Source of the DNA: a virus
IMG/VR virus record: IMGVR_UViG_3300037348_000049
Location: 65,572 to 129,571 of that record
DNA: 64,000 nt
Direction: 5' to 3' (one strand)
The notes under the pieces: generated by a model
Databases searched by the model: none
What the model was told of the DNA's origin: nothing
Seen by the model: the letters and a program-made list of their open reading frames with translations, nothing else
Shown: positions 36,897 to 54,931 of the stretch, in pieces
How the letters are laid out: each line of letters starts with the position of its first letter
Numbering within the stretch: the first letter of the stretch is position 1
Position numbers and translations under genes: made by a program

Positions 36897-36999
36897 TTCT
36901 GTATCCACTTTTTTACCAGTTTCAAATTATTTCCACAGATAGATTACTTTTTCCTTGCAAGTGTGCTACTATTGACTCAACACTAAAAAAGGAGAAAAG

Positions 37000-37293
37000 A
37001 TGACACAAAGGATTTACTGGTCAGACATTATTGAATGTGACGACCAACTGTTCGAGAACCTAGACACACTAATTGCGGTAGCAACTCAGACACCACAATG
37101 TTTCGGCTTTTGGAGTTCGGGTTCGGACTATGAAATGGTAAGCGTGGACACTAATGACGAAATGGAATTGGTAGTCACCTACACAGACATTGACAACTAT
37201 GACGACAATGGCGATGAGATTCGCAAAACTGTAGTTGAAAAACTCGACTACACCTATGGGAAAGAACTAGCAGTTCTAGTAGGGAGCGACTAA
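37000..37293 (+). CDS. Hypothetical cassette protein
   Basis: TGC-TACTAT extended -10, AAGGAG RBS. Confidence 0.7.
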   Translation: MTQRIYWSDIIECDDQLFENLDTLIAVATQTPQCFGFWSSGSDYEMVSVDTNDEMELVVTYTDIDNYDDNGDEIRKTVVEKLDYTYGKELAVLVGSD

Positions 37294-38057
37294 TGCCGAA
37301 CTGGGTATCGAACAGCGTTAGGGTTACAGGACTCGAAGCCGAGGTTCAGAGATTCATAGGGCAGGCAAAAGCTATGCCAAATACTTTTGTTGAGACAGAT
37401 GAGGACAAGTGGGATTCCGAACTCTCATTCGCCAACTTTATTGCGCCACCACAGGAAAGCATTGACTCGGGAGAATACCACGAAACTAAAGGCTGGGTTG
37501 AGGGCAAGGAGTCTGGCAGCTCAGAGAATAATTGGTATAACTTCAACAGCCGAGAGTGGAGCACCAAGTGGGACGCTGGCGAGGTTTTTCTAACAGCCGA
37601 AGCAGCAAGCGCCGACTTCGAATTTCACACAGCTTGGTCGCCACCAGAGCCAGTTTTCAGAGCTATGGTTGAGCAGTTTCCTGAGCTACAGTTCGCCATT
37701 TCATACGAGGAAGAGCAAGGCTGGGGTGGAGAGTTGGTCGGTGCAAAAGGCGAGCTGGCTATTGTCGAGGAATACGACATTCCAGATTCTCACGCCGACT
37801 ATGTTGAGCGTGACAGAGAAGATAGTTGCGCCTGTTCTTGGGCAGAGGATAAGGACGATTGGTATGACGATTGCCCGAACAAACGAGAAATCTTTGTTCA
37901 AGTTACAAAGGTGTATCGTCTCAGTTCGAGCGACGCAACAAACGCTAGAGCCGAATACTTAGAGATTGAAATGGGCGAAAAGAAATTGCCTGTTGAAGAA
38001 TCTGACTTGGGTTCGTTTGTTCTCGTAGACGAAGATGGTAAGCCTCTACAGGACTAA
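37293..38057 (+). CDS. DUF1281/YubB ferredoxin-like domain protein
   Basis: MPNWV.N...V.G, WY.F...W.TKWDA, F.TAWSPP.PVF......FP.L.F...YEE. Confidence 0.75.
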   Translation: MPNWVSNSVRVTGLEAEVQRFIGQAKAMPNTFVETDEDKWDSELSFANFIAPPQESIDSGEYHETKGWVEGKESGSSENNWYNFNSREWSTKWDAGEVFLTAEAASADFEFHTAWSPPEPVFRAMVEQFPELQFAISYEEEQGWGGELVGAKGELAIVEEYDIPDSHADYVERDREDSCACSWAEDKDDWYDDCPNKREIFVQVTKVYRLSSSDATNARAEYLEIEMGEKKLPVEESDLGSFVLVDEDGKPLQD

Positions 38058-38262
38058 TCACAGACCAACCTCTTACAAAGATTGACCTCACTTCGGTGGG
38101 GTTTTTCTTTTGTCTAAAAGCTGTATCCACTTTTTTACTAGGTTAGCGCCGTTACCAAACTGTTACCAAACTTTTCACGAAAGATTTGACATTACCTCTT
38201 TTTCGTGGTTTGATTCTCTTATCGCCAAAAGGTGAGAGACACGAAACGAAAGGGGAAGTCAA

Positions 38263-38901
38263 ATGACTTCATTATCAGCACCACTAGTAGCACCGAAAAT
38301 TATAGGCAAGGCAGTCTACCTAGAATTGGTAGTAAACCCTGCACTCACTCCTGACCAGCAGAGAACTGTTTGCGGTTGGCATGGGGCAGCAAGTAGCACG
38401 AAACAAATGATTATCTTTCCTCAGTATCAGGACGATACTGGCAAGATTATGCAGTCAGTTGTAATGACCAGAACTGTTTCAGAACACTCGCCTAGGGCGC
38501 AGTGGGATACCAGCTACACCAGAGGCTTCGCCAAGTTGGACGAACCAGAAATGGGAGTCGTTAGTGGACACCACTCCGACTACACAAATGTAGAGGACTA
38601 CTCAAAAGAGGAATTTGACGAGCTTCCAGTTCTTCAGCAAGTAGCGTCCAGACAGCGCACTTTGAGGCTAACCTTGAAGCGTGAATTACTCGGCACAGCT
38701 TATGGCGAAGTCATAAATGGTGAGCGTGAGGATTCCGTAGTCCAAGCTTGGGTAGTTCGTGACGATACTCCACTTGCCGTTGAGATTACCAACGAGGACA
38801 TGGCACTTTTGCATGACGAGAGCAAGACACCTCAAGCAGTTATTCGCCGAATAAATAAAGTTCGTGAATCAGTCTTGACATTTCCAACCAAACTGGCATA
38901 A
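38263..38901 (+). CDS. Hypothetical protein upstream of MoxR-VWA pair
   Basis: TTGACA promoter, AAAGGGG RBS. Confidence 0.7.
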   Translation: MTSLSAPLVAPKIIGKAVYLELVVNPALTPDQQRTVCGWHGAASSTKQMIIFPQYQDDTGKIMQSVVMTRTVSEHSPRAQWDTSYTRGFAKLDEPEMGVVSGHHSDYTNVEDYSKEEFDELPVLQQVASRQRTLRLTLKRELLGTAYGEVINGEREDSVVQAWVVRDDTPLAVEITNEDMALLHDESKTPQAVIRRINKVRESVLTFPTKLA

Positions 38902-38947
38902 TTAGACCAGACACAAAACGACACGAAAACTAAAGGGAGACACGAAA

Positions 38948-40024
38948 ATGTATCTAAAAAAGAGTATTTATCTAGCACCAGCACCAACGCTCAATAGCGC
39001 CTTGGACTTTGACTTCGAGAAGCTTTTGACAGAGCTATCGTCCACAGTAGCACTACCAACTTTGGGCGTGACTACCTCGGTTCTTGACAGCCTAATGCGA
39101 CCAGAGGGCAGGGCAACACTTCGCTCGAAGGCAGGGGCAAGAGCAGTCAAGCCACTTGGGATAGACTTGGGAGCAGAAACCCCAAGCCTTGCAGAGACAG
39201 TTGAGACAATGGAAACCACAGATTCGCTCGAAGGCTCGGAGAGTTATCCTCGACCAAATGGTGAGGACTACTATGCTCGACCTTGGGGCGACCACACAGA
39301 TGTCGAGGTCCTGAGAAAAGCCAGAGCCGAAGGTCATGCCATTCTACTTTATGGAGTCCCAGGAACAGGCAAGACAGCTTTAGTTGAAGCTGCTTTTCCA
39401 GAGGAACTTTATACCATTCTTGGCTCAGGCGATACTGAGGTTGCCGATTTGGTCGGTGGCTATGTCCAGACTCAGAGCGGTGGCTTCGAGTGGGTGGACG
39501 GAGTTTTGACCAGAGCTGCTTCTGAGGGCAAGGCACTTCTGATTGACGAAATTGGGTTGATTGACCCGAAGGTAATGTCAGTTGTCTATGGGCTAATGGA
39601 CGGAAGGCGTGAGCTAGTCGTAACTCAGAATCCAGAGCGTGGCACTATCAAGGCTAAAGAGGGCTTCTATGTCGTTTCAGCCACGAATCCGAATGTCGCA
39701 GGTGTTCGGTTGAGCGAGGCGCTTCTATCGAGGTTCGCTATTCACGCCGAAATGACCACAGATTGGGCGCTTGCTAAAAAGCTTGGCGTTCCCCAGAGTG
39801 CCGTAGTTGCTTCTCAGAATCTATCCAAAAAGGTAGAGAATGGTGAGACCTCATGGTCGCCACAATTCCGAGAGCTTCTAGCTTTCCGAGACTTGGCAAA
39901 GAGCTTTGGAACTAAGTGGGCAGTTCAGAATCTACTTGCCAGCGCACCAGAAATTGACAGACCAGTTGCCTCAGATGTATTTGGTCGAGTATTCGGCGAA
40001 GCGATAATGCCAGCCAAGATTTAG
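38948..40024 (+). CDS. MoxR/CbbQ-NorQ-like AAA+ ATPase
   Basis: GVPGTGKT Walker A, LLIDEI Walker B, ATNP, SEALLSRF arginine finger. Confidence 0.9.
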   Translation: MYLKKSIYLAPAPTLNSALDFDFEKLLTELSSTVALPTLGVTTSVLDSLMRPEGRATLRSKAGARAVKPLGIDLGAETPSLAETVETMETTDSLEGSESYPRPNGEDYYARPWGDHTDVEVLRKARAEGHAILLYGVPGTGKTALVEAAFPEELYTILGSGDTEVADLVGGYVQTQSGGFEWVDGVLTRAASEGKALLIDEIGLIDPKVMSVVYGLMDGRRELVVTQNPERGTIKAKEGFYVVSATNPNVAGVRLSEALLSRFAIHAEMTTDWALAKKLGVPQSAVVASQNLSKKVENGETSWSPQFRELLAFRDLAKSFGTKWAVQNLLASAPEIDRPVASDVFGRVFGEAIMPAKI

Positions 40025-40153
40025 TTGAGTATTCGTGTCCTCGACTAATGGGGAGTGTCAGGAAAGTTTTTCTGAAATGGACTTGACACTCCTACCCATT
40101 AGGGTGCATAATTAGACACAAGATAGAAACACCAGACAAAAGGGAGATTCAAA

Positions 40154-41989
40154 ATGGCACACTACAAAGTAAAGGGTTCAAGGCTTACAAGTCGAGAGAC
40201 AACAGCTAGTCCAGAGTGGCTAAAAGTTGGAAGCCAGATAAGCAAATTTGTCAATGACCTCGCACTTCGAGGCGACCTAGTTGTATTCGTGGGTGGTGAC
40301 GAAGTTGCCGAGGGCGAAGCAGTTGCGGCTTACTACGCCGACATAGCCGAGATTGAGATAAACGCTTCAAAGGCGTTCGGTGAAATTACCAAGCCAGAGT
40401 TCGTTGGAGATTTCAATGAGCGCACAGTCCAGTATGAGTTCCCAATGGCAACTGGAATCATTTTCCACGAAGCACTCCACGCCAAGCACACAGCTTGGGA
40501 CACAAACTACTTGCAGACTCAGCTAGACAACCAAGAAGGTCAAGCTTTCATGTTGCTAGAAGAATCCAGAATCGAAGCCAAGGGCGTTCTTGAGCGACCA
40601 CTAAACAGAGAATTCCTCAGAGCCTCAGCTATTGAAATGGCGCTCGAAGGCGTGGACGAAAAGCAACTGGCAACTCTCGGTAGCGACCTATGGGTCGTTG
40701 CGAATCTTGCAGGGCTATCGCTTGCTCGGTATGACGCCAGAGTTTTGGACAGGTCAGATGTCATAGACATTTACAAGATTGTTGTTTCCATTCTCGGTGA
40801 AAAGCTCTATGAAGATTTGCGCCTAGTTTGGGTTGCGTTCCAAAAGCTCACAGTTCCACAGGTCGAAGAAGCTATTACGCTCTCCAAGAAGTGGGTCGAG
40901 CTATTGCGTGAGGCAGACCCCGAAGGTGAGCCACAGGGAACAGGCTCAGCTTTTGAGTCAAGCGAAGGCGAAGGCGAAGGCGAAGGCAAGTCTCCAAGTG
41001 AAGGCGTTCAAAAGTTGCTCGATAAAATGAGCGACCAAGGAATGACCACAGAGCTTTCAGCTAACGACAAGTTGGCAGACCAAGAGACTCAAGAGAAGTG
41101 GCAGGACGAAGCCAAGGCTCGCCAAGAGGAATCCAAGTCCAAGAATCAGAAACAGGACACAGCTCGAAAAATCTTTGACAAGAGCCATAATGCAACTGGC
41201 TCAAACTCAAACTCGACAGTCAGCGAGCGCCGAGCGCCAACTGGCGGTGAGCGAGCCAGCGCAGTCAAGGTGGCGCAGATGTTAGACAAGGCAAAGTATC
41301 GTGAGCGTTCGGTTCATGTTCGCAAGACTCAAGCGCCACAGGGTCGCCTGATTGCTCGTAATGCCGTCCAGAATAAGGCAAGCGAAGCTATGGGTCGCCG
41401 AGGCGAACTACCAGCTTGGAAGTCGAAGTCTCGCAAGCACACAGACGACCCGACACTACGCCTCGGTATCATGGTGGACATTTCAGGGTCAATGGGTTCT
41501 GCTATGCAAGCTATGGCGACCACAGCGTGGGTCATGGGCGAGGCAGGTCGCCGAATCCAAGCCGAGACAGCTATGGTTTACTACGGCTCGGGTGTATTCC
41601 CTACTCTCCGCAGAGGTCAGAGGCTAGACGAAGTTTCTGTCTACACCGCACCAGACGGAACTGAAAAGTTCGGCGAAGCTTGGAGCGCACTAGACGGCGA
41701 ACTCGGACTGACTTTTGGAACAGGCGTGAGAATGGTTGTCAATGTATCGGACGGACAATACACACCTCAAGAGCGTGAGAGAGCTTTGGCTATGCTCACC
41801 GAGTGCAAGCAAAACGGCGTGGCAGTTCTTTGGATTACTCCAAGAGATTGCTACGGCATGCCAGCGAGCAACCTTATCCGACAGGCGAACTGGGGCGTGC
41901 ATTTAGACCAGCTCGACACCGCTCAGATTGCGTTGCTAGTCGGCAAGTCGGCAAGCGAAGCTTTGGGGAAGGTTGGGGCAAGCGCCTGA
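40154..41989 (+). CDS. HEXXH metallopeptidase-like + VWA domain protein (MoxR partner)
   Basis: FHEALH, LEESRIE, acidic linker, DISGSM MIDAS, T..F, VSDG. Confidence 0.85.
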   Translation: MAHYKVKGSRLTSRETTASPEWLKVGSQISKFVNDLALRGDLVVFVGGDEVAEGEAVAAYYADIAEIEINASKAFGEITKPEFVGDFNERTVQYEFPMATGIIFHEALHAKHTAWDTNYLQTQLDNQEGQAFMLLEESRIEAKGVLERPLNREFLRASAIEMALEGVDEKQLATLGSDLWVVANLAGLSLARYDARVLDRSDVIDIYKIVVSILGEKLYEDLRLVWVAFQKLTVPQVEEAITLSKKWVELLREADPEGEPQGTGSAFESSEGEGEGEGKSPSEGVQKLLDKMSDQGMTTELSANDKLADQETQEKWQDEAKARQEESKSKNQKQDTARKIFDKSHNATGSNSNSTVSERRAPTGGERASAVKVAQMLDKAKYRERSVHVRKTQAPQGRLIARNAVQNKASEAMGRRGELPAWKSKSRKHTDDPTLRLGIMVDISGSMGSAMQAMATTAWVMGEAGRRIQAETAMVYYGSGVFPTLRRGQRLDEVSVYTAPDGTEKFGEAWSALDGELGLTFGTGVRMVVNVSDGQYTPQERERALAMLTECKQNGVAVLWITPRDCYGMPASNLIRQANWGVHLDQLDTAQIALLVGKSASEALGKVGASA

Positions 41990-42078
41990 ACTAACCCATA
42001 ACGGATTGCCTATCCAGAGGTCGAGCTACCCTCAGTTACCGTTTTTCTGAGGATAAGTTCCTGACGGACAGGTAACAG

Positions 42079-42120
42079 AAACCCCAACTACCTTTACCCC
42101 CTTTTTGGTAGTTGGGGTTT
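42079..42120 (+). terminator. Terminator hairpin with C-rich loop
   Basis: AAACCCCAACTACC / GGTAGTTGGGGTTT 14-bp stem, loop TTTACCCCCTTTTT. Confidence 0.8.
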
Positions 42121-42336
42121 CGCCATACCCTGAGGTCAGCAACAGCAAAGCCCGCACTTTTGACCGCACATGAAAAGTCAAGCCCGCCGATCTCGAAACC
42201 AAATCCCGTATCCACTTTTTTACTGACTTCAAACTATTTTCAGAAAAGGCTTCCCTTTTGCTAGGTAACCCTGCTAGGATTGGAGTATCCAATTAGGGCG
42301 AAACAAAAGTAGCCCAAAAAAGAAAGGGGGGACAGA

Positions 42337-42669
42337 ATGGCAACAGCCACTTCGTCCCAGACAGCGTCAGAAGGCACTGTCAAAGTTTCACGACAAATCG
42401 TGGAACTAATCAACGAGCTTTCCGAAGTTCGTTCCACCTACAACACAGCGAAGGCTCGTGTTGAGGAACTCCGCAAGGAAGTTCTATCGCAGGTTGGCAC
42501 AGGCAACTTGACCCTTATCCACCACAACATTGAAGTGGCTCGCATTGTCGAGAGCAACCCAGCTCGTGTTGACCCTAAGTTCTTGGAAGAGAACTTCCCA
42601 GAGGCGTATGAGGCTTCCTTGAAGTCCAGCCAGCAGTTCACCATTCGTTCCGTCACACGAACGAAATAA
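42337..42669 (+). CDS. Cassette protein, paralog of 51775-52128
   Basis: Coiled coil then H..IE.AR....VD...L...FPEAYEA. Confidence 0.75.
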   Translation: MATATSSQTASEGTVKVSRQIVELINELSEVRSTYNTAKARVEELRKEVLSQVGTGNLTLIHHNIEVARIVESNPARVDPKFLEENFPEAYEASLKSSQQFTIRSVTRTK

Positions 42670-42819
42670 CCAGAAGGGGTTGGGCGAAAGCTCAGCCCTT
42701 TTCTCACCACCAGTTCCGTATCCACTTTTTTACTGGAGTTCCGTAAAAACTTCACACCAGAGTTGCAAAGTTGCATCAAGTGTGATTAGATACATACATC
42801 AAACGAAAAGGGAGACAAA

Positions 42820-43176
42820 ATGAACACACCACTAGAGCTAGAAGAAATCACAGCTTTGAGCCTGTCAATAACAGGCGTGTTAGTCGAAAATTATTTGAAG
42901 GAAAGCTACGCCGACCCAACTATGTATCGCGCATTGAGAGTCGCTTGCGGGCTTGCCGAGCAGTATAAGGAAAGGCTTGCGCTAAACGGCTCACCAGAGC
43001 AGATGATACAGGAAGTAGAAGAATTAGTGAATAACCTAAAAGTTACCGCTATGGAATGCGGCGAGATAGTCCAGAAGATTATCGAGGATAACGGCTGGGA
43101 AACCGAGGCTACTGGTTGGGACAGACCGCACAACCACGACAACTGTGACCACGGCGAGGACGGCGAGGATAACTGA
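42820..43176 (+). CDS. Hypothetical cassette protein
   Basis: AAAAGGGAG RBS. Confidence 0.7.
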   Translation: MNTPLELEEITALSLSITGVLVENYLKESYADPTMYRALRVACGLAEQYKERLALNGSPEQMIQEVEELVNNLKVTAMECGEIVQKIIEDNGWETEATGWDRPHNHDNCDHGEDGEDN

Positions 43177-43361
43177 TGCAAACCATAGTGCTACGGCTAC
43201 ACATTGACCAACCGATACCGAACGGCGAGGAAGGCGAGCGTATTATCAACGCCTACATAGACGAGCTTGCCAAAACGAACGGCACGCTTAGCTGGACTTC
43301 TGTGGACTGGGACGGCTTGGAGATTGACGAAACCGAGCATAGATTGGACGGACACTCTTGA
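43176..43361 (+). CDS. Hypothetical cassette protein
   Basis: TGATG coupling. Confidence 0.6.
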   Translation: MQTIVLRLHIDQPIPNGEEGERIINAYIDELAKTNGTLSWTSVDWDGLEIDETEHRLDGHS

Positions 43362-43675
43362 CAATGAGATTCAGGCACGCACTAGGCGAGGTAGTTCGTG
43401 AGCAACGGCTTGCTAAAAGCCTTACCCTAAGAGGCGTGTCCACTAAGGGGTTCGTGTCGATAGGACACCTGTCGGACATTGAACGGGGAGTGAAAGAAGC
43501 CTCGTCAGATACGATCGAAGCGATTGCCAACGGACTGGGTGTCCAGAGCTATTGGCTGATTATCGAAGCTGGCTATCGAATGACGGGCGAAGCCACCTTT
43601 ATTCCAGATACGCCCGAAAGTTTATTTATCCGAAATTCTCGTTGGGTCGAGCAATACTCTGACCTAGTTATCTAG
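43358..43675 (+). CDS. XRE-family HTH regulator, ClgR-like
   Basis: ALGEVVREQR....TLRGVS....VSIGHLSDIERGVKEASS..IEAI..GL. Confidence 0.8.
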   Translation: MTMRFRHALGEVVREQRLAKSLTLRGVSTKGFVSIGHLSDIERGVKEASSDTIEAIANGLGVQSYWLIIEAGYRMTGEATFIPDTPESLFIRNSRWVEQYSDLVI

Positions 43676-43824
43676 GGCAAAACCCGAAAAACCTCGACAC
43701 TTAGGTGTTGGGGTTTTTTGCATTTACTGTGGCGTATCCACTTTTTTACGAACTTCTAGACTGGATTAGGTGTTTTGCTAATTCTGTAGTAAGGTTTAGA
43801 TAACAACAACGAAAGGGGCAACAA

Positions 43825-44034
43825 ATGTACGATAATCCAGAGAGCATCTTGATAGATGCCGAAGAAGCGCAAGAGGAAGGCTTTTGCGAAATGCTCGATG
43901 AAATTTATCCAGTCGTAAAAATGGGAGAACTAACTTTCTACCCGTCACAAATTCTAAAAAGCTGCGACCCCGTTGCATACAGGATCGAGCTAGCTGATTA
44001 CCTCGACGACCTGAACGACAAAATGAATGACTAG
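43825..44034 (+). CDS. Acidic cassette protein, paralog of 45168-45374
   Basis: EMLDEIYP..KMGELTFY.SQILK.CDP.AYRIELADYL. Confidence 0.8.
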   Translation: MYDNPESILIDAEEAQEEGFCEMLDEIYPVVKMGELTFYPSQILKSCDPVAYRIELADYLDDLNDKMND

Positions 44035-44191
44035 GTTCGCAACAGCGCCGAAGCCCTTGCCGAAAGGCAGGGGTTTTTTCGTGCCGTAGGACTGTATCCA
44101 CTTTTTTACTGTCGCCGATTAGTTTGCCGACAACTTGCGGAACGCCGTAATTCGTAGTAAGGTTTAGCTATCAACGAAAAAGGGAGAGAAA

Positions 44192-44374
44192 ATGAAAACT
44201 TACAAAATCACAATGGCACGCGAAGAGACTTGGATGGTCGAAGTCGAAGCTGAGTCCGAAGTGGACGCGCTGATTGCTGGCGAGAGAGAACTAATGTCTG
44301 GCAATGGCGAATCTATTTGGAGTGAGTGGACTGCTGCGCCAGAGTCCGAAGAAGAAGAAGGGGAGGACAACTAA
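44192..44374 (+). CDS. Hypothetical acidic cassette protein
   Basis: AAAAGGGAG RBS. Confidence 0.7.
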   Translation: MKTYKITMAREETWMVEVEAESEVDALIAGERELMSGNGESIWSEWTAAPESEEEEGEDN

Positions 44375-44586
44375 TGGCTAAGCCAAGTATCACTGCGGTA
44401 AAAGAATGGGAACTCGCTTATGAGTCCGAAATGGTTCGTATCGAGTCTGGAACTGCCGTCTTCGATGAGGATTACTGGAAAGTAGTTCCTGCGGGCAAGA
44501 AGGCAACTTATTTCTATGGAGAGTCGGCGTGGAGTGACGCTCAGCGGTTTGCAAGCGACATAGACTCCAAGGCTTGGGTGAGTTGA
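44374..44586 (+). CDS. Hypothetical cassette protein
   Basis: TAATG coupling. Confidence 0.65.
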   Translation: MAKPSITAVKEWELAYESEMVRIESGTAVFDEDYWKVVPAGKKATYFYGESAWSDAQRFASDIDSKAWVS

Positions 44587-44588
44587 GA

Positions 44589-44765
44589 ATGAACACCCTA
44601 GAGGAACGCCGAGAGTTTTGGGCAGACATTGCCAAAAGAAATGGCTGGCATACAGCGCCGTTCTATGTTCAAGTCTGGCAGAATAAAGCTGGCGAGATTT
44701 GGGATAGTGTAAGCCACCAAGGAATGACCAAAGACATAATTACGATTGGAGAGAACTATGAGTAA
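44589..44765 (+). CDS. Hypothetical cassette protein
   Basis: Follows previous stop by 2 nt. Confidence 0.6.
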   Translation: MNTLEERREFWADIAKRNGWHTAPFYVQVWQNKAGEIWDSVSHQGMTKDIITIGENYE

Positions 44766-44835
44766 ATTGCTAGTGAAGCTGGGCTTGAAAAAGCCTGCGG
44801 GCAAACACGCCAAGCGAGCAAGACACGCCAAATAA
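44758..44835 (+). CDS. 25-aa highly basic peptide MSKLLVKLGLKKPAGKHAKRARHAK
   Basis: GGAGA RBS; last ORF before terminator; manual translation. Confidence 0.45.
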   Translation: MSKLLVKLGLKKPAGKHAKRARHAK

Positions 44836-45003
44836 AGTTAGCCCCCCTAACAGAAAGCCCCGTAAGACTTAGTGTCTTGCGGGGTTTTTGTCTCGGCGCT
44901 CGCCGTATCCACTTTTTTACTTGCCGTAAATAATCTTGCCGTAGTGACTTGCGCAATTAGGGGGAACTATGCGATACTTGAGTATCAACAGAAAGGGAAG
45001 ATA

Positions 45004-45374: not shown

Positions 45375-45535
45375 TGTCACCAAGAACCCCGAGAGTACCC
45401 CGCCGTAAAAAGCGGGGTTTCTTTTTGCCCTGGAGCGTATCCACTTTTTTACTGAGTTTAGATAGACAGGGAGTTGGCTTGACATCTGCCGATAACTCTG
45501 AGATACTGATACTAATCAGAAAGAAGGGCAACAAA

Positions 45536-45864: not shown

Positions 45865-46036
45865 GCCGTAAACTCACACCCCAATAAAATCCGACAGCGA
45901 GCGGAATTGGGGAGTTTTTCTTTCGCTGAGGTGTATCCACTTTTTTACTACGACTTCGCCGGCGCTCGCAGAAAGAACTTGCGCAATACCGGGCGTTCTG
46001 CTAGGTTTATACCAACAACGAAAGGGAGGAACTCAA

Positions 46037-46788: not shown

Positions 46789-46900
46789 TTTGGGCGGGAG
46801 TGTATCTACTTTTTTACTGCCGTTTCTACGCCGTTCACAAGAAGTTGCACTTTGTCTGCCGAGTGTGCTAGAGTTTGAGTAACAACAAAGGGAGAACAAA

Positions 46901-47149
46901 ATGAATTCAGAAAATCGCGAAGCCAAAATGGTTTTCGAAATGGTTATGAAGCTAGGCGGAGAGACAAACTACTCCGAGAGAACTAAAGCCGCAATCTGGG
47001 CAGAGTGCTTGAAGCCAGAATTACAAAATCAAGCCTTGCTTTATCTTTCAGGGTCAAGTGAGAGAGCGCATACAAGTCTCTACAACTTGCATACCACGAT
47101 AGTGGACAAGTTCTTTCGTGACCCAATTACCGAAGAATTGAGAGCATAA
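46901..47149 (+). CDS. Hypothetical cassette protein
   Basis: TGC-TAGAGT extended -10, AAAGGGAG RBS. Confidence 0.7.
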   Translation: MNSENREAKMVFEMVMKLGGETNYSERTKAAIWAECLKPELQNQALLYLSGSSERAHTSLYNLHTTIVDKFFRDPITEELRA

Positions 47150-47433
47150 TGAAACCAGAATGGTCTAAAGCTAGAAACAAGTTTCTCGAAACACGAAACA
47201 TAATCTGGGCGCACAAAATTCGTGAAGCCGAACTAAAGGCTAGTGTCTTTTACGGAATTGGAGTGGCTTGCGGTTTCTTTTTGCTAACCAATTTCCTAAC
47301 GCCGTTACCTGATGTTTTGAATGGCTGGCTATCACTAATAGGGGCTGGCGTAATTTTTACAGGGGCTACTATCGTAGTCAATGCCAAAGAAGTTCCACCG
47401 AGAATAAGGAGTGGCGTTGAGTATCGTCGTTAG
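47149..47433 (+). CDS. Two-TM cassette protein
   Basis: Two hydrophobic segments; TAATG coupling. Confidence 0.65.
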   Translation: MKPEWSKARNKFLETRNIIWAHKIREAELKASVFYGIGVACGFFLLTNFLTPLPDVLNGWLSLIGAGVIFTGATIVVNAKEVPPRIRSGVEYRR

Positions 47434-47586
47434 AGAGCTTACAGAGTGTTACAAGTGTGACACGCCGATAATGGCGGAAGTCGAAAGCGTTCACCCACTT
47501 TGCAAGAAGTGTGGCGAGAGTTTTGATGAGTGGTTCAACGCCGAAGTAAAAAAGATTTTGCACTAACTACCTAACCCCCTAAGAAA

Positions 47587-47630
47587 AAACCCCGTCGACC
47601 TTACCCCCTTTTGGTCGACGGGGTTTCTTT
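47587..47630 (+). terminator. Terminator hairpin with C-rich loop
   Basis: AAACCCCGTCGACC / GGTCGACGGGGTTT stem, loop TTACCCCCTTTT. Confidence 0.85.
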
Positions 47631-47783
47631 GTGCCGTTCGTAAAAAGTTACAGCAACTCCAGGCGTATCCACTTTTTTACTCGGCGCTCGCAATTCTGCC
47701 GATGGACTTGCGTTTTCGGTGTTTCTTGATAGGCTTTGATAAGTAACATAAGTTACTAAGTCGCAGAATGAAGGGGCAACAAA

Positions 47784-47984
47784 ATGGGAGTAAAGTATCC
47801 AGAGATTGAAGTTCAACTCACTGGGAATGATGGAAATGCGTATTCAATTATGGGCGCAGTTTCAAAGGCGCTAAAGCGTGCCGAAGTTCCTCAGATAGAA
47901 ATTGACCAATACATAAATCGCTCAATGAGTGGCGACTACGATAACTTGCTACAGACAGCTGCTAGTTGGGTTCAGGTTCGCTGA
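47784..47984 (+). CDS. Conserved small phage protein
   Basis: V.LTG.DGNAYSIMG.V.KAL......SGDYDNLL. Confidence 0.75.
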   Translation: MGVKYPEIEVQLTGNDGNAYSIMGAVSKALKRAEVPQIEIDQYINRSMSGDYDNLLQTAASWVQVR

Positions 47985-48328
47985 TGGCTAAGTTAGCGCT
48001 GCAAGTTGCACCTGATGGCGAGATTACTGAGCTAGACCTAGATTCGAACGCTTTGAGCGTGCTACAAGCTGCCGTTGATGGCTTGATTGAAGCCGTAGAC
48101 CTAGCCAACGATTTAACCCTATGGGTGAATGAAGAAGGGCTACTAAGGAACGACTTGAAGCTGAACCTAATCGCCCAAGCTTTTTATTCTGCGCCTATTA
48201 TGGGAACTATTGTTTTCACTGGTGGAACTGATGATGAAGGTGAGACACTAGGGCTTGATTCCACAAACGCAGCGAGTATCGAGCGAGTGTGCCAAATTTT
48301 CAGAGATGCGTTCAGTGACCTGAGCTGA
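47984..48328 (+). CDS. DUF3846-like protein
   Basis: LQAAVDGLIEAV......LWVNEEG.L...N..A...I.G.IVF.G. Confidence 0.75.
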   Translation: MAKLALQVAPDGEITELDLDSNALSVLQAAVDGLIEAVDLANDLTLWVNEEGLLRNDLKLNLIAQAFYSAPIMGTIVFTGGTDDEGETLGLDSTNAASIERVCQIFRDAFSDLS

Positions 48329-48521
48329 TGACCAAACAAACTAACCCCCGTCAAAAGTTGGCGGGGGTTTTTTTGCTGCCTTAGTTTGCAGCGGGAGCGT
48401 ATCTACTTTTTTACTAATCTATACCCCAAAAAATCGAACACTTGTTCGCTTGCATAGGTTGGGTAATCGTGCTATCTTTATCTTGTAGAAATCAGAAATC
48501 CAACAAACAAAGGGGCAACAA

Positions 48522-48863
48522 ATGAACAAGGAACTTCAAGCAGAATTAGTCTCAGACCTAATCGACGCCGCAGGCTATGGAATCAACTGGGCAGTGGAAG
48601 CTGTCCAGGACGATGCCGCCCAGACTTACACACTTACCCTAGACGACGACGCTGCCGAAGAAGCTGGCAAGCCTGAGGTTGTAGTCACATACGCTCAGAT
48701 TCGCACAGCCATTCGCAAGATTGCCAAGGGTGGAGTTTTGAATCCAGTGCTAACAAGCTCAGCTAAGGACTTCGTGTTCCGTCCTGACGAAGCAGACCTA
48801 GACAGCGATTTTGCTGATGCCGCAATTCAGATTGCAGTATTCGGGGAGGTGGTTTTTGGCTAA
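48522..48863 (+). CDS. Conserved phage hypothetical protein
   Basis: GI.WA N-terminal and D.D.AD..IQ.A.FGEV.FG C-terminal motifs. Confidence 0.7.
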   Translation: MNKELQAELVSDLIDAAGYGINWAVEAVQDDAAQTYTLTLDDDAAEEAGKPEVVVTYAQIRTAIRKIAKGGVLNPVLTSSAKDFVFRPDEADLDSDFADAAIQIAVFGEVVFG

Positions 48864-48876
48864 CCCCCTCAGGGGA

Positions 48877-48915
48877 GTTATCCACAGACTTATCCACACC
48901 CTGTGGATAACTTTT
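48877..48915. promoter_or_regulatory. Three perfect DnaA boxes forming a terminator-like hairpin
   Basis: TTATCCACA 48878-48886 and 48890-48898, TGTGGATAA 48902-48910; outer pair is an 11-bp inverted repeat followed by TTTT. Confidence 0.75.
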
Positions 48916-49050
48916 CCTGGACTCTGGTATCCACTTTTTTACCAAGGTTCCGTGTCGGCGCTCGCGATTTGCTTTTGGCAGAAAATCCTGCTAGGCTATC
49001 GGAGTAGCCAATCAGCTACATACTTGGAAACTAAATAAAGGGAGAGCAAA

Positions 49051-49596
49051 ATGACTAACATCATTACGCGTTGGGTAGGAATTGAATCCGAAGAATTGAA
49101 TCCAGAGAATTGGATCCAAGTCGGATTTAGATTTACTGACCAAGGAGGACACCGAGAGTATCGCGTGTTTGGGCAGCTCTATGGTGAGGACTTTGAAGAG
49201 ACTTATTCTTCAGACACCGACAACACTAAGTCGTTGGCATACAGTTACTTCGGAGAGCAGCTAAAGCGGATTGAAAGCGCGCAGACTTGGCTTTATGATG
49301 CTTATGAAGTCTGGGATCACGATTTTGTTGAAGTGGCTTGTGAGACTTGTGCGGTGGAGTTTGCCAAAGAACGTTCGCTTGAATGGAGCGGTGGGAAGTC
49401 TGCCGATTCATACACTGAAAATTCTGAGGAACTAAATGCAGGAGCGTCCTGTATCGCAAGCTACGCACTTGGCGATAGTGACTATCCACACACTTGTGTG
49501 TGCGGTGTTTACTTAGATACCCGATTCACCACCGAAGGTGAGGACTATCTTCGAGAGAACTTCCCGAAGGGTGTTCAAAAGCTCTACAGCTACTGA
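49051..49596 (+). CDS. Hypothetical cassette protein, Cys-containing
   Basis: CETC, C...HTCVC; AAAGGGAG RBS. Confidence 0.7.
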   Translation: MTNIITRWVGIESEELNPENWIQVGFRFTDQGGHREYRVFGQLYGEDFEETYSSDTDNTKSLAYSYFGEQLKRIESAQTWLYDAYEVWDHDFVEVACETCAVEFAKERSLEWSGGKSADSYTENSEELNAGASCIASYALGDSDYPHTCVCGVYLDTRFTTEGEDYLRENFPKGVQKLYSY

Positions 49597-49747
49597 TCCA
49601 GGATTGAACCCTAGGGCTAACGCTCTAGGGTTTTTTCTTGCCCAAAACTTTATTGCGGATTGACTTGACACTATCTAATAAAGCTAGTAACCTAGAGTTA
49701 CTAGCTAATCGGTTAGTATCCAGATTCAATTTTCAAAGGGGTATCGT

Positions 49748-49990
49748 ATGCCAACACCAACCACCGCAGGAGCTATAACCACGCGGATTTTTGAAGTTCA
49801 AGATCGTATGATCGAGATCCACGAGATACGCGACAACTTAGCCAAAGTTATTATGCAGAGCTTAGGCGATGGAACAATTCCAGGAATAAGCGTGGACAAC
49901 CTAATCAGCTTTGCCGATAAGATTATTCCACTGAACGCTGAGTTCGGAACCCTATCCGCCGAACACGCCGAACTTATGTCTGGAGACTAA
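49748..49990 (+). CDS. Hypothetical cassette protein
   Basis: AAAGGGG RBS; own terminator. Confidence 0.7.
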   Translation: MPTPTTAGAITTRIFEVQDRMIEIHEIRDNLAKVIMQSLGDGTIPGISVDNLISFADKIIPLNAEFGTLSAEHAELMSGD

Positions 49991-50132
49991 AGTTCTTCAA
50001 GCGAGAACCCTAGGGTAATTCCTAGGGTTTTTTCTTGCCCAAAACTTTATTGCCGATTGACTTGACACGATCCAATAAAGCTAGTAATCTATAGATAGAT
50101 AACCAAGGGGGTTATCGGAAAAGGGATTCAGA

Positions 50133-50255
50133 ATGACAATTATCGCAACTTATCCAGATTTCAAAACCGTCACCGTGTCGGTTGATGCTTGGAACGCGGA
50201 CGCCACCGTTGAAGCCTTTATGGAACTGGGCGCATTGTTCGTGACAACCAAGTAG
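50133..50255 (+). CDS. 40-aa cassette peptide
   Basis: Own promoter, AAAAGGG RBS and terminator; manual translation. Confidence 0.6.
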   Translation: MTIIATYPDFKTVTVSVDAWNADATVEAFMELGALFVTTK

Positions 50256-50427
50256 GGGCAACCCTATACCGATCACCCCTAGTCTCTGGCTAGGGGTTTT
50301 CTTTTTGCGAGCGCGAGTAGTCGGTATCCACTTTTTTACGCACTGCTACTTGGGCGCGGGATCGAGTTGCGGTTTGTCGCTTAGCGTGGTAGAGTTGCAC
50401 TACAACAACTAAACAAAGGGAGATAGA

Positions 50428-50598
50428 ATGCAAAAAGATACTACGCCTATTGCCGCCGACATCTACGAGAGAATCGAAATGTCAAAAAATGGTGACAAGG
50501 GAACTGTCTATGATGACTTGTCAGAGACTTTGGAATCTGGTAACTACCAAGAGTTCGAAGATTATTTCGGAGACACTGATCCTTTTGAATTCTTGTAA
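50428..50598 (+). CDS. 56-aa acidic cassette peptide
   Basis: AAAGGGAG RBS; ends DYFGDTDPFEFL; manual translation. Confidence 0.65.
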   Translation: MQKDTTPIAADIYERIEMSKNGDKGTVYDDLSETLESGNYQEFEDYFGDTDPFEFL

Positions 50599-50723
50599 TT
50601 CAAAAAAACAATTAGCCCGCTAGAGATAGCGGGTTTTTTGTTTGCCGTAGAGCTTGACAAGTGACAACTTTAGTATTAGACTTTGGGTATCAACCCAAGG
50701 GGGGTTGGTAAAAAGGAGACAAA

Positions 50724-50966
50724 ATGACTAACCAGACTTACGAGAGAATAGCCAATGTTTCATCTTGGGCGACAATGCTAAGCGGGCTTATTTTTGTAGG
50801 CACACTTGCATCGATCCTTGACCTAAGCAAGGCGGGTTCCTGGTGGCAGAATGAACAGCTAATGCCGGCACTAGCAGACTTTGGTTTAGCTAGTGGTTGG
50901 GTAATGATAATTGCGGCGGTAACTTGGTTCTTGACTTACCGCCGTTACAACTACGGACAGAAATAA
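50724..50966 (+). CDS. Two-TM cassette protein
   Basis: Hydrophobic segments; TTGACA/TAGACT promoter. Confidence 0.65.
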   Translation: MTNQTYERIANVSSWATMLSGLIFVGTLASILDLSKAGSWWQNEQLMPALADFGLASGWVMIIAAVTWFLTYRRYNYGQK

Positions 50967-50978
50967 AGGAGAGACACA

Positions 50979-51152
50979 ATGATCAGAATGGCATTGGTAA
51001 ATCGAGTAGGCGTTAGCCACACGCTTAGTATGGTTCAAGGCGAGACTACAGTTCCCACTTACTTGCTACAGGAGAGTGAGGAGTTCTTAGACTTGCTACG
51101 AACTGCCGTAGAGCTTGAAGAGCTTACCGATTGGGTGAACGAGAACTTTTAG
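50979..51152 (+). CDS. 57-aa cassette peptide
   Basis: AAAGGAG RBS; manual translation. Confidence 0.6.
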   Translation: MIRMALVNRVGVSHTLSMVQGETTVPTYLLQESEEFLDLLRTAVELEELTDWVNENF

Positions 51153-51327
51153 GTTCGAGAGAAGATGCCCCGCTTTTGCGGGGTATTTTTTTGTCTGGCG
51201 GGAGTTTGAGGTATCCACTTTTTTACGAACTGTGATCATAGAGCGCCATCGAGTTGCTCTAAGCCATAGGAGCTGCTAAGCTAATCGTAGTTAGCCCAAG
51301 GGGGCTGCAAAATCAAAGGGGCAAAAA

Positions 51328-51567
51328 ATGTCAGTAATCGCCAAAAATCCTTTCCACAACTGGATTATGGAAAATCACCCAGATTTTTCAGACTTCATCA
51401 AGTTTGCCGGCAACATCGTCAGACTAAACGCCGAGAGTCGTGGAACTCTTTTCGCCGTAGCAATCCCTGCCTACATCGCGCAGCATAACCTTGACTACGA
51501 CAACGCGCTAGACGCGTTCATCGCTTATGAAGTATTCAAGCGCGAGCTTTGGGCTTCAAGGGCTTAG
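51328..51567 (+). CDS. Hypothetical cassette protein
   Basis: AAAGGGG RBS; own terminator. Confidence 0.7.
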   Translation: MSVIAKNPFHNWIMENHPDFSDFIKFAGNIVRLNAESRGTLFAVAIPAYIAQHNLDYDNALDAFIAYEVFKRELWASRA

Positions 51568-51774
51568 AGATCACACCGCAACCCCTAGGGCTAACGCTCT
51601 AGGGGTTTTCCATTGTCTGGCGTGTCTCACGCGTTGCGCGTGTTGCGGTATCCACTTTTTTACTAATTTCTGACACGCCCCGACATCGAGTTGCGCTAAG
51701 TCCTAATCCGTAGTAAGCTAGAGTTACTAGCCAATCGGTTGGTGTTCAAGTTCCACCAAGTAAAGGGGCAAAAA

Positions 51775-52128
51775 ATGTCAGTAACCACCAAGGCGCAAGC
51801 CACCACCACCAAGACCACCAAGGCGACCAAAGTAGTTGTAGGTCAAGTTCGTGAGTTGGTTGAACTACGCGCCGAAATCACACGCCTTGAGAAACTAAAG
51901 GTTGCGATTACCGCCGAAATCGAAATCGCTTTTGGGGTGAACAAGACTTCAAAGACTTCAGAGTTCGACACGCTTACTCACCAAGGTATCGAGTTCGCTC
52001 GCTACGATTGGAGAAGCCGTAAAGGGATTGATGAAGCCAAGTTGGCGCTAGAGTTTCCCGAAGCTTATGAAGCGTGTTTCAAGGCGGACAAGACCGTATT
52101 CGGGCTAGTCGTGTCGCTGTTCAAGTAA
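51775..52128 (+). CDS. Cassette protein, paralog of 42337-42669
   Basis: H.GIEFAR....ID...L..EFPEAYEA. Confidence 0.75.
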   Translation: MSVTTKAQATTTKTTKATKVVVGQVRELVELRAEITRLEKLKVAITAEIEIAFGVNKTSKTSEFDTLTHQGIEFARYDWRSRKGIDEAKLALEFPEAYEACFKADKTVFGLVVSLFK

Positions 52129-52313
52129 CCAGAATACCGAGAGTGCCTCCCGAGAAATCGGGGGGTATTCTGCTGTCTGGATTTTTGGCGGGGCGGGGGT
52201 GTATCTACTTTTTTACTAGAGTTTTTTGCTGTGGGAAAGAACTTGACAAGTTTGCCGTGACCGTGATAGGATTGACTTATCAAGTCAAAGGGGCTTGAGG
52301 ATAAGGGGCAAAG

Positions 52314-52577
52314 ATGAGTAAGCAAAAGGCATTCGCCAAAGTAGCAGAGTTAGGCGCTGCACTCGTTGATGATGGCGGTGTGTATCAGCTCGAAGCACCC
52401 GCTGGAAAAATCTGCGGTGGTGGTGACACTCACACTAGGGCGTTCAGTTACGAGGACGGCATCAAGGACCCGTGGAGTGGCAGGACGGTGTGGCAGGATG
52501 TTCTTGAGGAACTGAAGGATGGCTTTATAGATTGCCCTTATAGGGCGTCGGGGTGTGACTACTGCGATCCCGAGTAG
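52314..52577 (+). CDS. Hypothetical cassette protein
   Basis: AAGGGG RBS; C-terminal CP....CDYCD. Confidence 0.7.
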   Translation: MSKQKAFAKVAELGAALVDDGGVYQLEAPAGKICGGGDTHTRAFSYEDGIKDPWSGRTVWQDVLEELKDGFIDCPYRASGCDYCDPE

Positions 52578-52709
52578 CCACACACTTGCACGCGAAAGAC
52601 CCCGTCCTAGTGACGGGGTTTTTTATTGCCGATTGACTTGACACACTTATGCGCCATACAGTAAGCTTTAGATAGATAGCCAAGGGGGCTATCGGATAAG
52701 GGGTTCAAG

Positions 52710-52874
52710 ATGACTAAGCCATTCGCCGTAGTGTTCGCAGGAGACTTGGGAGATTTCTTTACTCCAGAGTTTTACGCCACCGAAGCAGCTGCCACTGCAC
52801 GACTAATTGAGTGCCGTAACACTCTCAAAGACCCTAGCCAAGTCAAAGTGATGTTGCTAGTCGAGCTTGACTAG
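52710..52874 (+). CDS. 54-aa cassette peptide
   Basis: Own promoter, RBS and terminator; manual translation. Confidence 0.6.
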   Translation: MTKPFAVVFAGDLGDFFTPEFYATEAAATARLIECRNTLKDPSQVKVMLLVELD

Positions 52875-52950
52875 TCACACCAGTTCACCACGCGACCCCT
52901 ACTTTCGAGTGGGGGTTTTCGCGTTACCAAGTTGTTATCAAAAACTTCCT

Positions 52951-53383
52951 GGATTGACTTGACACGCGTGCCGTTATCCTGATAAGTTGAACTTAGTTAG
53001 CCCAAGGGGGGCTGCTAGAAGGGGTTCAAAATGACTTACTACATTCTCAGGAACACCACCACCACTGGTGAACTTGCTTACGCGCATAAAGGCGCTTACC
53101 TAACCCGCAGTGGCGCGCAGACTGCTGCCGACGGGATAAACCCCTACGGGCATCCTTTTACTTTTGCGGTTTATTCTGCCGAAGAACTCAACACCGAGTT
53201 TCTAGCTAAAGGCATAAGGGTTAGCGACTAACCACGCCACACCGCAACCCCTTAGCCATCACGGCTAGGGGGTTTTCCATTGCCCAAAAGTTTTTTATGG
53301 ATTGACTTGACACGCGTGTCGTTATCCTGATAAGCTGAACTTAGTTAGCCCAAGGGGGGCTGCTAGAAGGGGTTCGAAATGAC
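52951..53383 (+). repeat. 85-bp promoter-leader duplication (52951-53035 and 53299-53383)
   Basis: 82 of 85 positions identical by eye, from GGATTGACTTGACAC to ATGAC. Confidence 0.9.
53031..53231 (+). CDS. Hypothetical cassette protein
   Basis: Between the two 85-bp repeats. Confidence 0.7.
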   Translation: MTYYILRNTTTTGELAYAHKGAYLTRSGAQTAADGINPYGHPFTFAVYSAEELNTEFLAKGIRVSD

Positions 53384-53630
53384 AACATTCATTCTTGACC
53401 AGAGTAACACTGGTGGAGTATTCCTTGACGGGATGCCACGCATTGCGGTGCTTATCGCTGCTACCGAAGACGATGCTTATGCTCAAGCGCGTGAGCTAGG
53501 CGTAGACTTCATGGATTTCTGCGAGTGCTGCGGCACTAGGTGGAACATTGCCGCTTATGATCCAAAGTTTCACGGCGACTTGGATGAGCTGCTAGCGTCA
53601 CGCCGTGACTCCGATTCATTCAAGTGGTAA
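53379..53630 (+). CDS. Conserved phage hypothetical protein
   Basis: QSNTGG.F, A...A...GVDF..FCECCG.RW. Confidence 0.7.
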   Translation: MTTFILDQSNTGGVFLDGMPRIAVLIAATEDDAYAQARELGVDFMDFCECCGTRWNIAAYDPKFHGDLDELLASRRDSDSFKW

Positions 53631-53791
53631 CTAGCCACACTGCTTCAACCCCTAGGGCTAACGCTCTAGGGGTTTTCCATTGTCTGGCGTGTCTGGCGTG
53701 CCTAGCAAGAGCGTCAGAGCGCGTCAATGGCGCTGCCTAGGCAATCACACTAGGGCAATAGGCTAAGCCGTTAGATTCGATCCTGGAGTGT

Positions 53792-53821
53792 CTGGCGCAC
53801 TGGCGCACTGGCGCACTGGCG
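53792..53821 (+). repeat. Tandem octamer (CTGGCGCA)x3.75
   Basis: Directly 5' of the last 16-bp motif. Confidence 0.85.
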
Positions 53822-53932
53822 GGTATCCACTTTTTTACTAAGGTATTTACTACGGGTAGCAGCTTGACAAACTCTAATACCGTGATAGTCTTATTCCATA
53901 AGTAGATAGCTTATAAAAAACAAAGGGATAAA

Positions 53933-54145
53933 ATGAATGAATCATTAGTAGTAGCAGTAGTAGCATCTTCGGGATTAGAAAATCTTTATTATTTTGCACC
54001 GCAGGCAGGCAGACTAGAGCAACTGAAAGAGTTCTATGCCGAACTACTTGCAACTGGTCAGATCCTGGGCTATGAAATTAGTGACCTAAATCACGAGACT
54101 TTGAGTATTGCGGGAGAGACGCATAACCCCGTACACCGTCGCTAA
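53933..54145 (+). CDS. Hypothetical protein, last cassette
   Basis: TTGACA promoter, AAAGGG RBS, terminator near 54155-54190. Confidence 0.65.
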   Translation: MNESLVVAVVASSGLENLYYFAPQAGRLEQLKEFYAELLATGQILGYEISDLNHETLSIAGETHNPVHRR

Positions 54146-54931
54146 TCACTAACCGCAACCCCCTAGCCCCCAAAAGGTTAGGGGGTTTTCCATTGCCGTA
54201 GCCCTAGCCACTAGCAGTTAGTGACCATAGCCAGGTGCGACTTGTTGTGCCGAACACGGCTAATGTAGCGCCCCAATTGTTAGTAGCTACTTTAGGTTGA
54301 TAGATAGTTATCATCAACCATCAATAAGCCACACCCCCCTAGTGATTAGTTCCTCAGACTACCTGCCGCATCTTGTGGCAATTGCTTATGGAGTTTATTA
54401 GAGGATCTAGATAACTCGTCAAGATGCCGATAAGCACTTTTAGGGTGTCTACAGGATCGCTACTCTCACCTAATGAATCTTCTATGGACGCGCCCTAGTA
54501 AAAATCCTTGAGTGACCTTGAGAGTTTGATCCCTAGTTACTAGTCAATAGTTAGAAACTATAACTACTTGGCACTAGTGACAACTACTAGACAACACTCT
54601 CAGTTGGAGCATCATCACTACATAAATCATCTTTTATTCTTTGACGTTTTTTGCATAAATTGCAGCACTTGCTTATTACCCCTTGTCGTTATGTAAAGCT
54701 GGCAGACCCCTATGTTTTTAGGAAACGCTTGAAACGCACCCGTAGGTATACCGCTTCCGTCTCACCCGTCAAAATCAGTTCATGGCCAGTGTAGCATACC
54801 CCCCTCTAATTCCAAAACCTCGTATCGTAAACGCCCTTATTCCAATAAAAAATCCAAAAAATTTTCCAAAAAAATACGTCCAAACCTAGCCCTGTCTACT
54901 AAACTGGACATTCATCCGGTAAAATGGATGG

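Follow-up and report, generated by a model that had tools for sequence, protein, structure and literature searches.

A lineage-private 16-mer ahead of the predicted promoters of a small-gene cassette array in an uncultured lake phage of Actinobacteria

T4-type phages keep small accessory or early genes in self-contained terminator/promoter units. There the repeated intergenic sequence, PeSL, conserves a promoter and a stem-loop, and it is the point at which cassettes are gained, lost and shuffled between relatives (PMC4122927). The stoperators of Cluster A mycobacteriophages, bound by L5 gp71 and its counterparts, are asymmetric multi-copy sites of 13-16 bp, oriented with transcription, whose spelling varies by lineage; they lie genome-wide inside transcribed regions and block elongation (PMC6550527, PMC9283540). 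Other actinophages have asymmetric intergenic repeats, namely an 18-bp motif in Microbacterium Cluster EC and the SAS and ESAS motifs of Clusters K and EF, which are short, conserved, oriented with the genes of the small gaps they occupy, and of no known function (PMC7302621). This article concerns a 16-mer, GTATCYACTTTTTTAC, hereafter the word, that punctuates an array of small-gene cassettes in 64,000 nucleotides of viral DNA. This stretch, which we call the window, makes up the right half of a 129,571-bp IMG/VR virus record (IMGVR_UViG_3300037348_000049, positions 65,572 to 129,571). With moderate confidence, we read the word as a promoter-coupled upstream control element, private to its phage lineage and probably activating, that doubles as a recombination seam.

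A word at a fixed distance from its promoters

The word occurs in 18 exact copies between window positions 36901 and 53838, all on the plus strand and all between genes, where 100 shuffles of the sequence gave a chance expectation of 0. Allowing three mismatches adds three matches in the window, which is the chance level. No copy beyond the 18 turned up on either strand of the whole 129,571-bp record with up to two mismatches allowed. The word is therefore all-or-none, with 18 perfect copies and zero decayed ones in 129.6 kb. It is asymmetric, with no dyad, and it alone is conserved, the flanking columns showing almost no conservation. A preliminary description of this DNA, made from the letters of the window, had reported 18 intergenic, co-oriented copies, nearly invariant among diverging flanks and confined to 36.9-53.9 kb. 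These points hold up, and in the full-genome scan that it proposed the motif proves to be neither genome-wide nor on both strands.

Upstream of 15 of the 18 copies a strong hairpin (dG -13 to -26) with a T-rich tail ends 9-40 nt before the word; for the copies at 42208 and 53823 the terminator lies about 100-170 nt away. After each word comes a sigmaA-like promoter, an AAAGGG(G) ribosome-binding site and one to four small open reading frames (ORFs). This is the cassette layout that the preliminary description had drawn, and it is real, although the count moves slightly: about six extra units without the word and about 24 cassettes become seven and about 25. The word-less units, all terminator-bounded, comprise five with exact copies of GATTGACTTGACAC and two with TTGACA promoters at 40083 and 50654.

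Promoters were scored over the 95 nt after each word with the pattern TTGNNN-N16-19-(TGn)TANNNT. The distance from the end of the word to the predicted -10 box is 47-53 nt in 15 of the 18 units. If the -10 box is taken as -12 to -7, the word would run from about -78 to about -63, with its T-tract at about -70 to -65 and, in those 15 units, a predicted centre near -70.5. Other distances are looser, as seen between terminator and word and again from the -10 box to the ATG (25-56 nt). Because its spacing to the -10 box is the tighter one, the word appears to be tied to the promoter and not to the terminator. Among 81 copies from five lineages the main mode of this spacing is 49-52 nt, and a second cluster at 38-43 nt lies about one helical turn closer. 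TGn precedes the -10 box in 14 of the 18 word-bearing promoters. Their -35 boxes are mostly weak (TTGCNN), with TTGACA in only four, whereas all seven word-less units have a perfect TTGACA.

Spellings and their rewriting

Protein-seeded searches (with the CobT-like, XRE and HTH_17 proteins) gathered about 100 related IMG/VR loci. The same architecture is present in 21 of the 66 related loci around the XRE gene, and within each genome the word is nearly invariant. Between genomes there are at least seven spellings, among them GTATCCAC, GTATTTAT, TAGTTAT, GTATTCGT and GTATTCAT. Every spelling is followed by T5-6, a tract conserved in all lineages, and then by a lineage-specific tail; a GTATCCACTTTTT phage has the same system. 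An exact-word scan of IMG/VR gave single chance matches only, among the matches listed. Neither of the cultured relatives A3Wally and GodonK has a comparable word in high copy number, and our literature search found no mention of these words. In two relatives the word stands twice in tandem, at an interval of 17-18 nt, in the first unit of the array (L130 4718/4735 and L134 7310/7328).

One contig (L128/L226) shows the word being changed. It belongs to a distant relative, with 37-88% amino acid identity over window 24-37 kb, and it shares with the window a single block, 36929-43086, at 93.4% nucleotide and 93-98% amino acid identity. At the second and third units of this block the terminator, -35 box, -10 box and leader are almost unchanged, and a patch of 30-45 nt, starting a few bases before the word, has been replaced; in L128 it reads GTATTCATTTTTTCTTGCA at both units. 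The fourth unit in L128 still reads GTATCCACTTTTTTAT. These sequences argue for a word that has to fit something which the resident genome encodes elsewhere than in the shared block. The rewriting also rules out, as determinants of specificity, ORF 37293, ORF 38263, the AAA ATPase, the CobT-like protein and ORF 42337.

Cassette exchange

A relative that is 97% identical, L129, lacks two cassettes found in the window, 48399-48926 and 51211-51647. At the first indel the single L129 word has a left flank 100% identical to that of the copy at 48399 and a right flank 100% identical to that of the copy at 48927. At the second, the left flank in L129 is 100% identical to that at 51211; the right flank resembles that at 51648 only at its start, identity over 60 nt being 40%. 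Orthologous cassettes also stand in different orders among relatives. The word had been proposed beforehand as a crossover site for the gain and loss of cassettes, with a comparison of cassette order as the check, and two indels with their junctions at the word, together with shuffled order, bear this out. The word thus has a role in recombination, which I think is secondary. It would act as microhomology for the deletion, insertion and reordering of whole cassettes, as it is the only sequence that all units share.

Timing

Short palindromes are scarce in the array. Between 36.9 and 54.2 kb the observed/expected ratio is 0.32 for 6-bp palindromes (77 seen, 240 expected) and 0.58 for 4-bp palindromes, against 0.88-1.15 and 0.92-1.04, respectively, in both flanks and the rest of the genome. 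Counted per 3 kb, the 6-mer ratio is 0.22-0.45 over window 36001-54000 and 0.8-1.5 outside, and the borders of the depletion coincide with those of the array. Most array proteins are small and very acidic. The depletion fits DNA that is needed before the phage can counter restriction, that is, early-acting DNA. The preliminary description had spoken of an early host-takeover library, and the early action gains indirect support from a palindrome depletion whose borders are those of the array.

How the word may act

We see the word as a co-regulating upstream element read by a protein because it keeps a fixed distance from the core promoter, accompanies weak -35 boxes, is identical within a genome and is selectively rewritten. 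A sequence-specific reader had been suggested from the invariance of the word, and with the lineage spellings and the rewriting in L128 it is the best inference. On this model the 16-mer would occupy a single face of the DNA, some seven turns of the helix ahead of the start site, at 18 host-sigmaA-type promoters of small, presumably early genes, and its reader would set the activity of all word-bearing promoters together. Lineage specificity would reside in the 8-base head (GTATCCAC here), the T5-6 tract being common to all lineages. Since the spelling is private to each lineage, the reader is probably phage-encoded. Activation of weak--35 promoters would be the likelier sign of regulation, with a phi29 p4-like or class I-like contact to RNA polymerase as the model.

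More tentatively, since we would sooner bet against it than for it, the words may amount to a lineage-private, rewritable address code. A phage factor would read the word at -70 and license some 20 early promoters; phages would fall into transcriptional specificity groups much like immunity groups; and imported cassettes would be re-addressed by a change of word before they worked. If a factor private to the lineage does read the word, these abundant freshwater actinophages own a simple, portable switch made of one protein, one 16-mer and the host polymerase, which would control a whole library of host-takeover genes, and the natural spellings would be ready-made orthogonal pairs. A large array of accessory genes can be both co-regulated and freely exchangeable, and in the rewriting of words on imported cassettes one can see directly, as is rarely possible, how regulation re-adapts once genes have been transferred horizontally.

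Several points weigh against our interpretation. The promoters are predictions from our own simple scoring. Three copies in the window stand at odd distances from the -10 box (40, 58 and 70 nt), and beyond the main mode no significant helical periodicity is seen. The -35 contrast (hypergeometric p ~7e-4, calculated by hand) comprises fewer independent cases than its counts, several word-less promoters being recent duplicates of one another. Alignment ends in close pairs do fall at words (24 of 139, against 7.0 expected from array length), an enrichment that is confounded; because alignment ends favour intergenic DNA anyway, only the exact junctions are firm. Finally, covariation with spelling is absent from XRE, the 54932-type proteins, 32253, the zinc-ribbon proteins and any conserved protein within about 10 kb.

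The search for a reader

The detectable DNA binders are the XRE protein (43358), two paralogous proteins with a double helix-turn-helix (HTH; 54932 and 56887, the latter with a sigma-region-4-like helix), three HTH_17-like proteins and two WhiB proteins. A search of the record for a single-subunit polymerase (PF00940) found none, the control genomes likewise giving no PF00940 signal, and sigma region 2 (PF04542) and DnaA domain IV had no match in the record. As no phage polymerase or sigma factor was found there, the host polymerase must, barring a very divergent phage factor, read the array promoters.

The candidates that the preliminary description had put forward fell away. XRE is conserved in 79 loci, many of them without the word, and its recognition helix is the same across spellings. 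Both HTH helices of 54932 are invariant across spelling types A, B and C, and the protein also occurs in word-less phages. The 56887 protein is of a second type found mostly in phages that lack the word, and the double-HTH proteins have no sequence similarity to solved stoperator repressors. As for the serine recombinase at 10354, a recombinase is also annotated in the nearest named relative, Actinomycetia phage DSL-LC01, which has no word.

Other proteins fared no better as readers. The HTH_17-like protein 32253 keeps its recognition helix in phages of different spelling and in phages that lack the word, and the residues flanking this helix are unsorted by spelling (TP, for example, occurs with both GTATCCAC and GTATTTAT), and none of the zinc-ribbon proteins 47417, 45646 and 36609 covaries with it. 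A 118-residue protein, 42820, is present in 17 of 21 word-bearing loci and in two of 45 others; it was set aside because it is acidic, is absent from four word-bearing loci and probably follows phylogeny. A protein Atlas search with it returned nothing. In identity tables covering the proteins around the XRE and CobT genes and window 15-43 kb, no protein departs from the phylogenetic trend. The reader may be a small unrecognised protein, may be encoded elsewhere or may be delivered with the virion.

Alternative readings

The main rival makes the word an operator for a negative regulator, whether an immunity repressor of a prophage, a protein for early shut-off or a roadblock that keeps read-through out of each cassette, functionally like stoperators or like phi29 p4 at promoter A2c. 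I consider it unlikely, although it has real attractions. An asymmetric, co-oriented, lineage-specific site that is rewritten in its recipient is just what immunity groups would lead one to expect, the word lies just downstream of terminators, and the serine recombinase makes a temperate lifestyle possible. Monomeric two-domain repressors acting on asymmetric sites are also known (PMC9283540). Yet a site at -70 does not occlude the promoter, and the promoters that bear it are the weaker ones. No copy lies outside the array, and no repressor-like protein tracks the spelling, the double-HTH proteins being unlike solved repressors.

A second alternative, somewhat less likely again, is that the word is mainly a recombination site, used as microhomology or by a dedicated recombinase or endonuclease, kept uniform by recombination and without any role in transcription. 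Neither the 47-53-nt spacing, nor the contrast in -35 boxes, nor the rewriting of a short patch between intact flanks is predicted by this. For a serine recombinase one would expect a dyad, which the asymmetric word lacks, and DSL-LC01 has its annotated recombinase and no word. The case for it comes from the exchange data: the two L129 indel junctions inside the word with outer flanks 100% identical, the enrichment of breakpoints at the word in close pairs, the shuffled order of cassettes among relatives and the precedent of PeSL elements (PMC4122927).

It is improbable, in our view, that the word works through a host component or in cis only, as a far-upstream site for the C-terminal domain of the polymerase alpha subunit, as an A-tract bend or as a weak DnaA box (TATCCAC is the core of TTATCCACA). 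UP elements are A/T-rich and lie at -40 to -60, and the word, at -63 to -78, is outside their range. The T-tract is conserved in all lineages, the type-A head matches seven of nine DnaA box positions, three perfect boxes do lie in the array (48878-48910), and our search for a phage reader found none. However, the spellings GTATTTAT, TAGTTAT and GTATTCGT break the DnaA box core, a structural element would have no need of 16 invariant bases without a single degenerate copy, and the rewritten words on the imported block speak for a reader specific to the genome.

We give very little credence to the idea that the word is a promoter or stop signal for an unrecognised phage polymerase or sigma-like factor, with tandem promoters in each cassette: its size and strict invariance do resemble phage-polymerase promoters, and sigma-encoding Cluster EC Microbacterium phages have a comparable asymmetric 18-bp motif (PMC7302621), but the record has no PF00940 or PF04542 match (PF00940 being silent in the control genomes too), the leader would be 85-125 nt long, and the fixed spacing to a good sigmaA-type promoter goes unexplained. 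That same spacing led us to set aside T5-like nick sites, Chi-like sites, homing-endonuclease targets and RNA-level signals.

The array and its surroundings

The record comes from an uncultured lake phage of Actinobacteria. Its TerL is 72.6% identical to that of DSL-LC01 (OQ999401) and about 62% identical to the TerL of large Microbacterium phages, and its two WhiB genes and a DUF3039 gene are consistent with an actinobacterial host. The 129.5-kb genome of DSL-LC01 was assembled from Dishui Lake (PMC10611076). On one side the array (Table 1) is bordered by an endolysin-like region, and on the other by the two double-HTH genes, an NlpC/P60 gene and the terminase.

Table 1. Coordinates of the array, the word copies and the word-less promoters (window positions)
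Feature	Position	Strand	Predicted -35	Predicted -10	Remarks
Array of ~25 terminator-bounded small-gene cassettes (18 with the 16-mer, 7 without)	36901..54190	+			palindrome-poor block with the same borders
16-mer copy 1 (GTATCCAC...)	36901..36916	+	36944-36949	36967-36972	no terminator; after stop codon of ORF 36609-36896
16-mer copy 2	38123..38138	+	TTGACA 38186-38191	38209-38214	spacing 70; rewritten in L128
16-mer copy 3	42208..42223	+		42275-42280	rewritten in L128
16-mer copy 4	42718..42733	+	42763-42768	42786-42791	predicted to drive operon 42820-43675, including the XRE gene
16-mer copy 5	43734..43749	+		43790-43795	spacing 40
16-mer copy 6	44094..44109	+	44135-44140	44158-44163	
16-mer copy 7	44905..44920	+	44949-44954	44973-44978	
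16-mer copy 8	45437..45452	+	TTGACA 45479-45484	45502-45507	
16-mer copy 9	45933..45948	+	45979-45984	46002-46007	
16-mer copy 10 (GTATCTAC variant)	46802..46817	+	46845-46850	46869-46874	
16-mer copy 11	47665..47680	+	47708-47713	47730-47735	
16-mer copy 12 (GTATCTAC variant)	48399..48414	+		48473-48478	spacing 58; left edge of cassette absent from L129
16-mer copy 13	48927..48942	+	48969-48974	48992-48997	right edge of copy-12 indel
16-mer copy 14	50324..50339	+	50367-50372	50390-50395	
16-mer copy 15	51211..51226	+	51254-51259	51277-51282	left edge of second cassette absent from L129
16-mer copy 16	51648..51663	+	51691-51696	51714-51719	
16-mer copy 17 (GTATCTAC variant)	52201..52216	+	TTGACA 52243-52248	52267-52272	
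16-mer copy 18	53823..53838	+	TTGACA 53864-53869	53886-53891	
Word-less consensus promoter of CobT-like VWA gene	40083..40112	+			
Word-less promoter box GATTGACTTGACAC	49658..49671	+			
Word-less promoter box GATTGACTTGACAC	50055..50068	+			
Word-less TTGACA promoter	50654..50682	+			
Word-less promoter box GATTGACTTGACAC	52631..52644	+			
Word-less promoter box GATTGACTTGACAC	52952..52965	+			
Word-less promoter box GATTGACTTGACAC	53300..53313	+			

Several further features lie in or near the array. The three perfect DnaA boxes at 48878-48910 (TTATCCACA; two direct, one inverted) are the only ones in the window, and they form the terminator-like hairpin of a cassette absent from L129. Similar paired boxes occur in L130 (at about 17.1 and 18.0 kb) and in Microbacterium phage A3Wally (at about 13.75 kb). 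Those in the window could be a replication origin or a site for DnaA titration. Between 49700 and 53370 several cassette leaders contain a hairpin with AAGGGG(G) in its loop, ahead of the real ribosome-binding site. Another recurrent word, AAACTTTT[CT]ACG[AG]A, has seven copies between 32597 and 47648, in both orientations, lying in the array and just before it, often directly upstream of TTGACA boxes; in relatives (L228, L229, L244, L245 and L208) it becomes AACTTTTAACGAA. One of the conserved HTH proteins may recognise it.

No Rfam match was found in window 30-58 kb. A stretch of 786 bp (54146-54931) that separates the last cassette from the first double-HTH gene, ahead of the terminase, contains no convincing ORF and no Rfam match and is a candidate packaging or origin region. 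ARAGORN identifies a tRNA-like gene at 20055-20130 with an unassigned four-base anticodon (gtta). At 10354-11737 the serine recombinase gene (Resolvase and the start of a Recombinase domain, 221 amino acids) overlaps the next ORF, of 247 amino acids, and the pair could be a split or frameshifted large serine integrase.

Comparison with known systems

Set beside PeSL, to which the preliminary description had likened it, this array agrees in function and departs in anatomy. Cassettes are shuffled at a repeated intergenic sequence, here with two exact L129 junctions. In PeSL, however, it is the promoter and stem-loop that are conserved, whereas here both are diverse and a separate 16-mer at about -70 is conserved, in a spelling private to the lineage. 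The analogy to the stoperators of L5, drawn in the same place, fails on position and distribution. The word occupies only 17 of 129.6 kb, at a fixed distance upstream of promoters and downstream of terminators, and no cognate repressor among the proteins compared tracks the spelling, though spellings differ by lineage. The Cluster EC motif and SAS/ESAS sit either 21-30 bp ahead of the start codon or at the ribosome-binding site; the word is 85-125 nt upstream, and a complete sigmaA-type promoter follows it.

Some relatives carry repeats of quite another kind. DSL-LC01 has a syntenic small-gene array between its AAA/CobT-like genes and the terminase, but it has no word at -70. It carries instead 23 co-oriented copies of ATTCTAAAG[AT]TGTTATA[AG]T (L009 23592-43305), a repeat that is an extended -10 promoter with an abutting invariant spacer block and that its genome paper does not mention. 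In A3Wally (L140), five copies of CGACACGCCCGGGAT between 6249 and 13790 are placed some 18 nt before sigmaA-like promoters, and the repeat could be an analogous upstream box in a relative that is in culture.

Three other classes are a poor match. With the word at about -78 to -63 and its T-tract at about -70 to -65, the position is not that of an UP element. As a DnaA box, type A agrees at seven of nine positions and other spellings break the core, the true boxes being confined to 48878-48910. Integron attC arrays consist of promoterless cassettes with inverted repeats and an integrase, whereas the cassettes here come with promoters and terminators of their own and the word has no dyad.

Class I and p4-like activator sites are centred near -61, -71 or -82, those of p4 at -71 and -82. 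If its predicted centre near -70 and its predicted spacing hold, the word would resemble the sites of class I CRP, the MarA/SoxS marbox and phi29 p4 in position and in fixed orientation and spacing, and it goes with weak--35 promoters; the poor core elements typical of activator sites are found here too, TTGACA being present in four of 18 word-bearing against seven of seven word-less promoters. T/A tracts feature in the phi29 p4 sites as well (CTTTTT-N15-AAAATG; PMC3100819). What sets this array apart from such activator sites is a single asymmetric word in place of a dyad, 18 copies of it in one array, and a fast turnover of its spelling.

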